Source: Escherichia coli (lineage in GTDB: Bacteria > Pseudomonadota > Gammaproteobacteria > Enterobacterales > Enterobacteriaceae). From it: a stretch of 25,350 bases of DNA. A program made the position numbers. Below are positions 1-3,000 of this stretch, one piece after another. The stretch is taken from assembly GCF_003334255.1 (NCBI RefSeq), contig NZ_QOWU01000041.1, one strand, 5' to 3'. Position 1 is the first letter of the stretch, and every line of letters begins with the position of its first letter.

Positions 1-3000
1 AACAGGCAAATTATCAACGACCCTAACGCTTATCTGGAATATGACAATTATGATGCCATTGAAGTGCCTAAAACCAACGGCATTCCGTCAGATTATGATG
101 GCGTAATGGGTGTACCGATTAGTTTTTTGGATAAATATTGCCCTGAACAGTTTGAAATTATTTGTATGGATTTTGAAATGGAAGGTTTACATCAGAATTT
201 AATTAAATCAGACTGGAATGATAAATTTGACAGGGGATATTTAAAAGGTAAACGCATGCACTCAAGAATATTCATCAAACACATAAAACCACAAAATAAA
301 TAAAAAGGAAAACTAAAAAATGCAAACTCAATTAGATACATCAATCACCATTGAACAATTGTGCGATGGCTTTGTTTATAATGAACTGGAGGGAAAAGGC
401 TTGTTTGGTTTATCAGGAAAGCTTACCATTCAGCCCGAATATCAACGCAATTATATTTATGCAGACGGTAAGAAAGATGTGGCGGTTATCCAGTCTGTAT
501 TAAAAGGCTATCCGCTCGGTTTGATTTATTTTAATCAACCTGACAAAGATACAGAAGATACATTTGAAGTACTGGATGGTCAGCAGCGCATTACCAGTAT
601 TGGGCGGTTTGTTACTGGAAAATTCGCCATTATAGATGATAAAGGTACGCCATACTATTTCCATAGTTTACCGCAAGACCAACAAGAGAAAATCAAACAA
701 ACCACTTTGCTGATTTACAAATGTAAAGGTACAGAAAGCGAAATTAAAGAATGGTTTAAAACGATTAATATTTCTGGCGTCCCTTTAAATGAACAGGAAT
801 TATTGAATGCGGTGTATTCGGGCAAATTTGTTACACAGGCAAAAGCAGAATTCAGTAATTCTGCCAATTCAAATGTACAAAAATGGAGCGCTTACATCAA
901 AGGTAATGTTAAACGCCAGGAGATTTTAGAATGTGCGTTAGACTGGGTCAGTAAAGGCAATATCAGCGAATACATGAATGCCCATCGTAATGATGACAAT
1001 ATCAAGGAATTAAAAACCTATTTCAATAGCGTGATTGATTGGGTTAACACCACATTTACCGAGATAAAAAAAGAAATGTGCGGTCTGGAATGGGGGCGTT
1101 TATACGAAACCTATAAAGACAAACCATACAATCCAGGTGAATTAACCACGCAAATCAATCAATTATATCAGGATGATAGTGTAAAAAACATTAAAGGCAT
1201 TTGGGAATACGTGTTAGGTGGTCAATCTGATAAACGTTTATTAAACGTTCGCTTTTTTGATGAAAAAATCAAAAAACAAGCCTACAAAAGACAAACAGAT
1301 AAAGCGGCGCAACAAGGCATATCAAACAGTCCTCTTTGTGCCAGTGCAGATAATGCCAATAAAACCAAAATCTGGGCTTTTAAAGAAATGGAAGCCGACC
1401 ATGTTTCCGCATGGAGTAAAGGGGGTGAAAGTACGCTTGATAATTGCGAAATGCTTTGCATTACACATAATCGTTCAAAAGGGAATAAATAACCTGGTTA
1501 AATTAATTAAGGCGGTAAATACCGCCTTTCAAAAGGCAAATAAACGTTTAAAATATCAGCTATAAAACACACCCAAAAATTTCACCAGACAACTCCATCC
1601 AGACGTTTGGTGAACTGGCACAGACTATCAGCATCAGCCCACAGGATTTTAATCTGTCCCCCTGTCGACAAGGAAAGATAAACAGGTGACCGGAGAAAGG
1701 GGGCTCATTCAGCACATGCTATATCTGTTCCAGATCATTGAAGGATTTACGCATATCGGTAACACCGGCAACCAGCCAGATACGAGTGCCAGATGGGACT
1801 GAGATCATTGCCCTTCCCGGTCAATTCCCTAAGATGTATTTTCAGAACGGTGAGAGATAAATTCCCCACCATGCGCAGACTGGCACTACCAACAATTACA
1901 TCACAGATCATCCCCTCACTGTAAGACGAGGAGCGTATTGAGATTCTGTCTGATATATCTTCTAAATAACTGATCCTAATATCGCTACACTTTAGCCAGC
2001 CCATGTTTCCCACCGGGGAATGGGCTAACGGTATCCATAAAGTGACGAACCTTTTTCAACAGTTGCCACATTGAACGGCACTGGTGATTTCGGGTTATTG
2101 TCTGATGAAGCGCCTGCCACAATCGTTCCACATGATTGACCCACGATGAGTAAACCGGCTGATAAATGACCCTGAACTTCGGGTTTGCTTTCAGCCAGCG
2201 CAACGTTTCACGGCTTTTGTGGATGATGTAGTTATCGACAATGAGCGTAACTATTTAGTAATCAGTGCTCAGCCACTTAACCAGGCTTTTGGTACATCAA
2301 TTTGTATTCCTGTCACGAGCGCTGACGCATTTTCTCGCTCAAAAGGCGTGACTGTGGTTATTGATGGGGGAAGTACCGATACAGGAAAAATTACCGGAGT
2401 TGCTCTGCCATTTGCAATCAGGTCACTGGACCTGAATGCCCTGGGAGCTACGTATGCAGCAAAAGTCGAAACACGCGTGCTTGATGAAGTGACTTCGTTA
2501 CTGATTGATATAATCGATCCACAATAAAAATAAGCTAAAATAGCTGGCATGAACACGATTTACGTTTCTTATCGTCTCTCTGCCGCTTCTTTCTTCCATT
2601 GAACATTTATCATACAGCACGTATGATATCACTGTGATAACGACCTGCTCATGGGAGCTGCGCTATGAAAAACGAAGCAGAAAAAGCGATGTGGAATTGC
2701 AAAACCTCGGATACACCATGGACCTTCAGTTCCCTGCTGAAAAAGGCCGTCTGCGCAGTTTTGCCTGATGCAGAACTGAAGATTGAGAATGCCACAAAAG
2801 GATGTTCTGTTTTATCGACTGTAGATAATGACCTTGGCAATAAATCATTAAATTACGACCCTTTTTCTTTTGAATCTGCTTTACATCTTGATATAGAAAA
2901 TCTTCCCCTTATAGAAAATTGGGATGGAGAACCTTACAAGCTCCCCTAAAAATATGGCGATATCCATCACAAATATCGCCATAAATATTAACAATTATTT

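Follow-up and report, generated by a model that had tools for sequence, protein, structure and literature searches.

The Cassette and Its Two Proteins

The stretch of DNA analyzed here (the window, 25,350 nucleotides of the Escherichia coli contig NZ_QOWU01000041.1, assembly GCF_003334255.1) opens with an AT-rich cassette of two genes, the 3' end of a DNA methylase gene (gene 1) and, directly downstream on the same strand, a complete gene for a 390-aa protein that carries a DUF262 and an HNH domain (gene 2, the nuclease; table 1). Pairs of this kind are already labelled Type II restriction-modification (RM) systems; the unusual part is the evidence that a generic nuclease is joined here to a modular methylase. 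When a 3-kb query from the window was searched, the chromosome of E. coli STEC2018-553 was found to be 100% identical, and strain 2015C-3121 matched too. The STEC2018-553 sequence (locus L001) supplied the part of gene 1 that is missing upstream of the window.

The complete gene 1 (L001 11158-12303) encodes 381 aa. It matched the Pfam family EcoRI_methylase (PF13651) with an E value of 8e-123 over residues 11-375, covering model positions 1-344 of 345, and the PADLOC profile MTase_II with 9e-89. The catalytic NPPF motif (T163-N-P-P-F-S168) and C54-D-D-P57, in the acidic segment for cofactor binding, were both present, and both were invariant across the 77 members of the methylase family. By its sequence, gene 1 is thus an EcoRI-family N6-adenine DNA methyltransferase. 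A preliminary description of the window had already noted that the gene's C-terminus resembles an adenine methyltransferase, and the full gene bears this out, while the two families suggested there, N6_Mtase and TaqI_C, were not among the Pfam matches. No NCBIfam match was obtained for the methylase or for the nuclease, and sequence searches of the PDB with either protein singly returned nothing meaningful.

Pfam placed GmrSD_N/DUF262 (PF03235; 6.5e-21) on residues 36-166 of the nuclease and HNH (PF01844; 4.5e-6) on residues 355-390; the C-terminus gave no match to DUF1524 (GmrSD_C). The motifs QPEYQR (431-448) and DGQQR (575-589), by which the DUF262 domain had been identified beforehand, were both confirmed and were invariant in all 86 members of the nuclease family; Q42, R43, D86, G87, and R90 did not vary among 109 sequences with identities as low as 34%. 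The AlphaFold2 (AF2) model of the nuclease had a pLDDT of 93.8, and its best fold match in the PDB was BrxU (7p9k), a GmrSD-family protein. Weaker Foldseek matches to ParB CTPase domains followed (E about 0.03-0.05, ~270-290 columns aligned), and the C-terminus matched the fold of the Gme HNH nickase. A profile of the nuclease family likewise matched the HNH domain of 4h9d (3e-6), those of IscB/Cas9 and McrA, and the DUF262 domain of BrxU. The PHROGs database offered just DUF262 families of unknown function and generic HNH families.

Among the defense models of PADLOC, REase_II (PDLC03418) matched the nuclease over its full length (6e-86), and residues ~33-250 matched NsnA (6e-29; residues 33-244) and PD-T4-2_A (5e-14). 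Menshen NsnA and PD-T4-2 protein A share with the nuclease the ParB-DUF262 domain, as it is named in PMC12065111, and the helical region that follows, whereas they lack an HNH domain, have other partners (the NsnB/C ATPase and nuclease), and have no obligate methylase. Considering the MTase_II and REase_II matches together, existing defense-finding tools would call the cassette a Type II RM system. Our literature search found no paper describing the pairing of a methylase with a DUF262-HNH protein; papers on Menshen, GmrSD, Helicobacter pylori, and Avibacterium mention DUF262 or HNH only in other contexts.

Methylase and Nuclease Genes Occur Together

The nuclease family is large, with more than 8000 close homologues; of the clusters formed at 50% identity, 5253 were reached at E <= 1e-3 and 425 at E <= 1e-30. 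A scan of one genome per species yielded 80 loci, in which the nuclease still shared 62-68% identity with its E. coli counterpart. The loci came from Proteobacteria, Bacteroidota, Chloroflexi, Firmicutes/Clostridia, Actinobacteria, Spirochaetes, Patescibacteria (candidate phyla radiation, CPR), Omnitrophota, and a Nanoarchaeota metagenome-assembled genome. Seventy loci, each with at least 1150 bp of upstream sequence, could be assessed, and in every one of them (70/70) a methylase of the same EcoRI-family clade lay upstream on the same strand. In 63 of 73 loci, the start of the nuclease gene lay between -17 and +30 bp from the methylase stop codon; 25 of these showed an overlap of 4 bp. The same arrangement was found among relatives at 40-43% identity and in plasmid copies from Enterococcus, Moraxella, Apilactobacillus, and Rhodococcus. 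Moreover, the two proteins were the sole components in about 60 of the 70 loci.

The two genes were also found fused. An in-frame methylase-like::DUF262-HNH protein of 688 aa (P0180) is encoded at L093 6001-8067 in an organism with genetic code 4 and 33% GC. A read-through artefact was rejected, since TGA is read as Trp there and the junction contains no stop codon of any kind. In this 9-kb locus no separate methylase gene was called, and a truncated 357-aa downstream gene had no Pfam entry. A second apparent fusion (P0241) proved to be a short chimera or deletion product and was excluded from the evidence. Based on the constant presence of the methylase upstream, the tight gene coupling, and the fusion, the two genes are functionally linked, as had been proposed from the window alone. 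The same proposal had held the arrangement to be unusual; judging from the number of homologues and from PADLOC's Type II label, the pairing is in fact common.

At some loci other genes intervened between the two. They were rejected as a conserved third component because they were heterogeneous, apart from one family of 230-292 aa that accompanies EcoRI-family methylases (L005 4122-5000, L017 67-678, L099 3905-4597) and was seen in Acinetobacter, Neisseria perflava, and Campylobacter coli. No PADLOC model matched this family, and for the copies of L005-L007 no Pfam family was on record. Its gene sits between the methylase and DUF262-HNH genes in Acinetobacter; on a C. coli plasmid the methylase is its sole companion; and in N. 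perflava it immediately precedes the DUF262-HNH gene, on a contig that ends too early to show a methylase. Members of this family are candidates for a classical restriction enzyme that shares its methylase with the DUF262-HNH nuclease.

The pairing also bears on the kind of nuclease in question, which the preliminary description had likened to modification-dependent enzymes of the GmrSD/SspE type. Like GmrSD, BrxU, and SspE, the protein combines an N-terminal DUF262 domain of the ParB/Srx fold, which binds nucleoside triphosphates (NTPs), with a C-terminal nuclease of the His-Me type, and SspE also works beside a DNA-modification module. However, those enzymes end in DUF1524 and measure ~590-750 aa, whereas the present family ends in a zinc-knuckle HNH domain (PF01844), measures ~390 aa, and is always coupled to a methylase. 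GmrSD and BrxU attack modified DNA, and SspE depends on phosphorothioate. Members of the GmrSD family act alone, with no cognate methylase, which is the opposite of what the 70 loci display. The nuclease might still be a GmrSD/BrxU-like Type IV enzyme that merely travels with an unrelated methylase; the BrxU fold match and the annotation of some members as McrA by the Joint Genome Institute (JGI) would agree with this. Such a passenger would, however, hardly keep company with one methylase clade at every locus, overlap its gene, or fuse with it, and a cutter dependent on N6-methyladenine (m6A) beside an m6A methylase would be suicidal. Because the C-terminus is a canonical HNH domain instead of DUF1524 and the nuclease never stands alone, a modification-dependent role is unlikely, and we regard a Type IV passenger as very improbable indeed.

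The Methylase Is Modular and the Nuclease Uniform

The 77 methylases were aligned, and conservation was expressed as the fraction of sequences with the majority residue. It was about 0.8 along the protein except in two regions of variable length, V1 (residues ~208-258) and V2 (residue ~336 to the end), where it fell to about 0.2-0.4. In contrast, the nuclease had no hypervariable block; its conservation was 0.64-0.95 throughout, and its identity between loci was 60-98%. V1 occurred in 12 types and V2 in 25, which were joined in 56 combinations among the 77 methylases.

These modules were exchanged without a corresponding change in the nuclease. How similar the nucleases of two loci were had no correlation with the identity of their V1 modules (rho 0.03); for V2 a weak correlation was seen (0.20), as physical linkage of V2 and the nuclease gene would lead one to expect. 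Among the 25 pairs of most similar nucleases (86-98% identity), the V1 and V2 modules were mostly unrelated, and no co-variation of nuclease alignment columns with module type exceeded the level of shuffled labels. In an ordinary Type II system the endonuclease changes with the specificity of its methylase; here it did not, a comparison that is indirect insofar as V1 and V2 are the presumed determinants of specificity.

The clearest exchange was found in E. coli itself, where both methylase modules have been swapped in situ between two integrative conjugative elements (ICEs). From ccdA to the end of the nuclease gene, the DNA of the STEC2018-553 and 2013C-3033 cassettes agreed at 95-100%, two blocks excepted. 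Both blocks lie in the methylase gene, at L001 11768-11947 and 12068-12284 (the latter corresponding to window 68-284), and their identity was 42-72%. Compared with locus L011, the DNA identity of the V2-region block was 47-72% and that of its flanks 97-100%. The two strains have nucleases that are 98.2% identical, with V1 modules of 25% and V2 modules of 40% identity. By module type, the window allele (STEC2018-553, 2015C-3121) combines V1 type 9 with V2 type 0, and the other allele (2013C-3033, CM2) combines V1 type 1 with V2 type 4. At some loci (L049 2487-5979, L024 3693-5992, L053 691-2882), a single DUF262-HNH gene follows an array of two or three EcoRI-family methylase genes in tandem. 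The cores of these tandem methylases were 68-88% identical, and their V1 and V2 modules were unrelated.

V1 and V2 as Candidate Recognition Modules

Genuine M.EcoRI, found beside R.EcoRI on a small E. coli plasmid, was 39% identical to the gene 1 protein. Its V1, however, shared 68-77% identity with V1 type 3 and its V2 58-61% with V2 type 9, and these two types were each found separately in DUF262-linked methylases. Since the identity of the modules is far above that of the whole proteins, the modules move between otherwise divergent methylases. The likeness to the EcoRI RM system thus comprises the same Pfam family, the NPPF motif, a conserved core, and shared pools of modules. The partners differ: R.EcoRI is a PD-(D/E)XK enzyme that is encoded upstream and recognizes GAATTC on its own, whereas the partner here is a DUF262-HNH protein. 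The DUF262-linked methylases form a clade with conserved insertions (residues ~87-112 and ~271-281) that neither M.EcoRI nor the C. coli methylase has; these two methylases are paired with nucleases of other kinds.

The published numbering of M.EcoRI refers to the mature protein without Met1, and W183, Y204, C223, W225, and H235 mapped as expected; V1 corresponds to 183-226 in this numbering. Tyr204, which Wong and Reich are said to have photo-crosslinked to target DNA in 2000, falls inside V1. V1 is directly followed by a motif that hardly varies within the methylase family, and the equivalent of H235 is part of it. In M.EcoRI, the substitution H235N alters DNA intercalation and raises specificity at least 1000-fold (PMC2396439). 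The placement of V1 and V2 relative to DNA was not readable from structure, because the methylase profile search found no solved relative and the AF2 model gave only weak matches to generic Rossmann methyltransferases; the pLDDT of both modules was below that of the rest of the model. Taken with the exchange of modules, these positions suggest that V1 and V2 would set the sequence to be methylated.

A classical Type IIP-like system would account for the same genes differently: the nuclease would read one fixed sequence that all methylases of the family protect, and the variation of V1 and V2 would have nothing to do with specificity. The pair does consist of adjacent methyltransferase and endonuclease genes that match RM profiles, PADLOC calls them REase_II and MTase_II, their order and close spacing are what one expects of Type II RM genes, and a single shared target would fit the high conservation of the nuclease. 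Nevertheless, the module types are unrelated in sequence and in length and are exchanged as cassettes, and those of M.EcoRI are just two among many. V1 abuts a residue that governs DNA handling in M.EcoRI, and if all protected the same site, nothing would be gained from tandem methylases differing only in V1 and V2. A fixed target of this kind therefore seems unlikely to us.

A Possible Division of Labor between Methylase and Nuclease

Considering that the nuclease is near-constant while the methylase modules shuffle, the nuclease most likely lacks sequence specificity and relies on the methylase to direct it. We give an even chance to a mechanism in which the methylase supplies recognition and a generic ParB-like NTPase-HNH cutter carries out restriction, a division of labor reminiscent of Types III and I. 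According to this model, the EcoRI-family methylase would mark host DNA with m6A at sites set by the exchangeable V1 and V2. The DUF262-HNH protein would be the restriction component, built from a ParB/Srx-fold NTP-binding domain, a helical region, and the C-terminal HNH domain; being specificity-free, it would be brought to, or licensed at, unmethylated sites through a methylase-nuclease complex, with the ParB-like NTPase domain as the nucleotide-dependent licensing or switch element. A module swap or an added tandem methylase would then reprogram restriction and leave the nuclease unchanged. The tandem methylase arrays, the natural fusion, and the clade-specific methylase insertions fit such guidance. 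In this model the methylase would bind the nuclease, the activity would depend on NTP, and unmethylated DNA would be cut.

The likeness to Type III (Mod/Res) and Type I (HsdS shuffling) systems lies in exchangeable modules within the methylase, a generic nuclease, and an attached NTPase; as in those types, several methylase variants can serve one nuclease. However, the present pair has no superfamily 2 (SF2) helicase or translocase, no PD-(D/E)XK domain, and no separate S subunit; its NTPase is ParB/Srx-like, and its methylase belongs to the EcoRI family instead of being a Mod protein (beta-class, with a central target recognition domain) or an HsdM, while the complex between the partners is presumed. 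That the family represents a distinct and very widespread kind of RM outside Types I-IV, with a specificity-free ParB-like NTPase-HNH nuclease licensed by a modular methylase, is a proposal that we make tentatively, rating it somewhat below an even chance.

The invariant DUF262 motifs could also be read in another manner. As in SspE, the DUF262 domain might sense host m6A and trigger the NTPase and the nicking of unmarked DNA, so that no stable complex with the methylase would be needed. The Ssp system, with its modification module and a DUF262/His-Me nuclease, provides a precedent (PMC9646914; PMC12707154), and the motifs of the DUF262 NTP pocket are those that never vary. Yet a motif-specific m6A reader would need to co-vary with V1 and V2, which the nuclease does not; a context-free reader would be constantly triggered by Dam methylation in E. 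coli; the fold search with the nuclease model gave no known m6A-reader fold; and the fusion and tight gene coupling favor direct contact. We consider SspE-like sensing rather improbable.

On the other hand, the nuclease could be a latent toxin that is bound by the methylase and freed when the methylase is inhibited or depleted, leading to abortive infection or postsegregational killing. PrrC with EcoprrI is a precedent for such a guard. The cassette stands among addiction genes (ccdAB, hok, PemK) on the ICE, relatives occur on small plasmids, and some loci have a separate candidate restriction endonuclease for the same methylase. But in most loci methylase and nuclease are the only components, and module shuffling and tandem arrays are easiest to understand if what the nuclease does depends on the recognition sequence. 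A guard or addiction role is a possible one, less economical than guidance by the methylase, and it appears distinctly unlikely.

Several points weigh against guidance by the methylase. Physical contact between the two proteins is argued from the fusion and the tight gene coupling only. In the fused protein, moreover, TFPSF replaces TNPPF and the CDDP motif is lost; without these motifs the fusion may work differently, and its methylase part may have lost activity and been retained for DNA recognition. At a few loci a candidate classical restriction endonuclease lies between the methylase and nuclease genes. Models of PADLOC derived from REBASE label the nuclease an ordinary Type II restriction endonuclease, and REBASE may hold a characterized member with its own specificity. 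Instead of serving recognition, V1 and V2 may be loops on the protein surface that diversify for other reasons, for example to escape phage inhibitors. Finally, a methylase-guided cutter would have to spare hemimethylated sites after replication.

If the methylase does guide the nuclease, two proteins would suffice for a minimal restriction system, and exchanging short modules would reprogram its specificity. This would account for a nuclease sequence that keeps 60-70% identity from one bacterial phylum to another, in CPR, and in a DPANN archaeon, and a ParB-type nucleotide switch would join the mechanisms that couple recognition to cleavage. Pipelines that annotate such systems as ordinary Type II would need correction, and the pair could offer a naturally modular scaffold for nuclease targeting.

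The Nuclease Allele of the Window

The catalytic residues of the HNH domain (D360-H361, N375, and N384), which correspond to the D-H general base, the structural Asn, and the metal-binding Asn/His of such nucleases, were invariant in all 86 nucleases. By alignment with the Gme HNH structure 4h9d, the zinc knuckle is formed by C337-x2-C340...C380-x2-H383. Residue 337, however, is Ser in the window allele (AGT, 1328-1330) and in STEC2018-553, while it is Cys in 85 of 86 relatives, including both other E. coli alleles compared (L010, L011). A CxxC...CxxH/C knuckle is therefore intact in the family as a whole and not in this allele. The "complete HNH finger" of the preliminary description holds for the HNH domain and its catalytic residues, and fails at one zinc ligand.

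The methylase allele with these swapped modules was shared by one other strain only, 2015C-3121, whose nuclease also has Ser337. There, IS1A has inserted into the nuclease gene (L100 2600-3297) and split it into a DUF262 open reading frame (ORF) and an HNH ORF, leaving the methylase intact. With C337S at an otherwise invariant zinc ligand and IS1 in the sister allele, the window nuclease is probably attenuated or inactive. A weakened nuclease would leave a largely solitary methylase, so that this E. coli ICE probably carries an active, recently re-specified adenine methylase beside a disabled nuclease. The methylome of the strain, and its barrier to gene transfer, would have to be interpreted accordingly. 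It is a matter of speculation that the module swap exposed new unmethylated sites and thereby selected for loss of the nuclease.

Genomic Setting of the Cassette

The GC content was 0.35-0.37 across window positions 1-1500 and 0.53-0.63 in most of the remaining window; in the complete record the low-GC stretch covers about L001 10800-13600. The cassette lies in the cargo region of an SPI-7/ICEclc-type ICE of 55-60% GC. It has ccdAB on one side; on the other are remnants of IS66 and IS630, the gene for a PemK toxin, and the transfer module's TraG end. The nuclease gene was present in 7 of 5426 complete E. coli genomes, and every copy was chromosomal. Considering the low GC content within an ICE and that the nearest protein relatives are those of Pasteurellaceae, Moraxella, and Neisseria, the cassette was separately acquired, as first supposed from its composition.

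Table 1. Features of the cassette, with positions in the window
Feature	Position	Strand	Basis
3' end of the methylase gene, last 100 codons and TAA	1..303	+	Frame 1 open, TAA 301-303
Methylase V2 module, residues ~336-381	163..300	+	Majority-residue fraction 0.21-0.46 vs ~0.8 in the core
Intergenic spacer, 16 bp, with ribosome-binding-site-like AAGGAAAA (AGGA-type)	304..319	+	Sequence
Gene for the 390-aa DUF262 (ParB-like NTPase)-helical-HNH nuclease, WP_001194648-like; start ATG 320, stop codon 1490-1492	320..1492	+	ORF, Pfam, PADLOC, AF2
DUF262/GmrSD_N (ParB/Srx-fold) domain, residues 36-166	425..817	+	Pfam 6.5e-21
Helical middle region of the nuclease, residues ~167-334	818..1321	+	AF2 secondary structure, NsnA and ParB alignments
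HNH nuclease domain, residues ~335-390	1322..1489	+	Pfam HNH, 4h9d profile match
GC-rich hairpin AAGGCGGTAAATACCGCCTT, just 3' of the nuclease stop, at the 3' edge of the low-GC cassette	1509..1528	.	Sequence

The short spacer and its AAGGAAAA are consistent with operon coupling of the methylase and nuclease genes. A promoter scan scored no better than shuffled sequence, and the hairpin AAGGCGGTAAATACCGCCTT had a terminator-like score on the minus strand only, with none for the plus-strand operon.

Together with hok, traT, ccdAB, and a BcgI-like pair, the cassette forms a small defense/addiction island at the cargo end of the ICE. The BcgI-like pair, annotated as HsdM/HsdS (L001 6277-9139, minus strand), lies about 2.9-5.7 kb upstream of the window; it scored as a BcgI-like Type IIB/IIG enzyme-methylase (PDLC03608, 4e-108) and a Type II specificity subunit (6e-89), and it has no HsdR. 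Downstream of the cassette, an IS66 TnpB remnant was found at window 1597-1808 (minus strand). An ORF of 102 aa for a PemK/MazF-family toxin (window 2219-2527, plus strand) overlaps an IS630 transposase remnant (1985-2251, minus strand), with no antitoxin gene annotated alongside.

Farther along the window, a 200-aa "restriction endonuclease" (22996-23598, minus strand) adjoins traD in the ICE backbone; its matches were weak and Mrr-like/Type IV only (mREase_IV 1.9e-4; PDC-S02 4e-5). A hypothetical ORF of 193 aa (18504-19085, plus strand) without a PADLOC match lies on the strand opposite to the transfer genes, in a pocket of 39% GC, and is probably another small cargo insertion. The iha siderophore-receptor/adhesin gene (7888-9978, minus strand) stands amid the ICE transfer genes in a pocket of 0.46-0.49 GC and is a RefSeq pseudogene with an internal stop.

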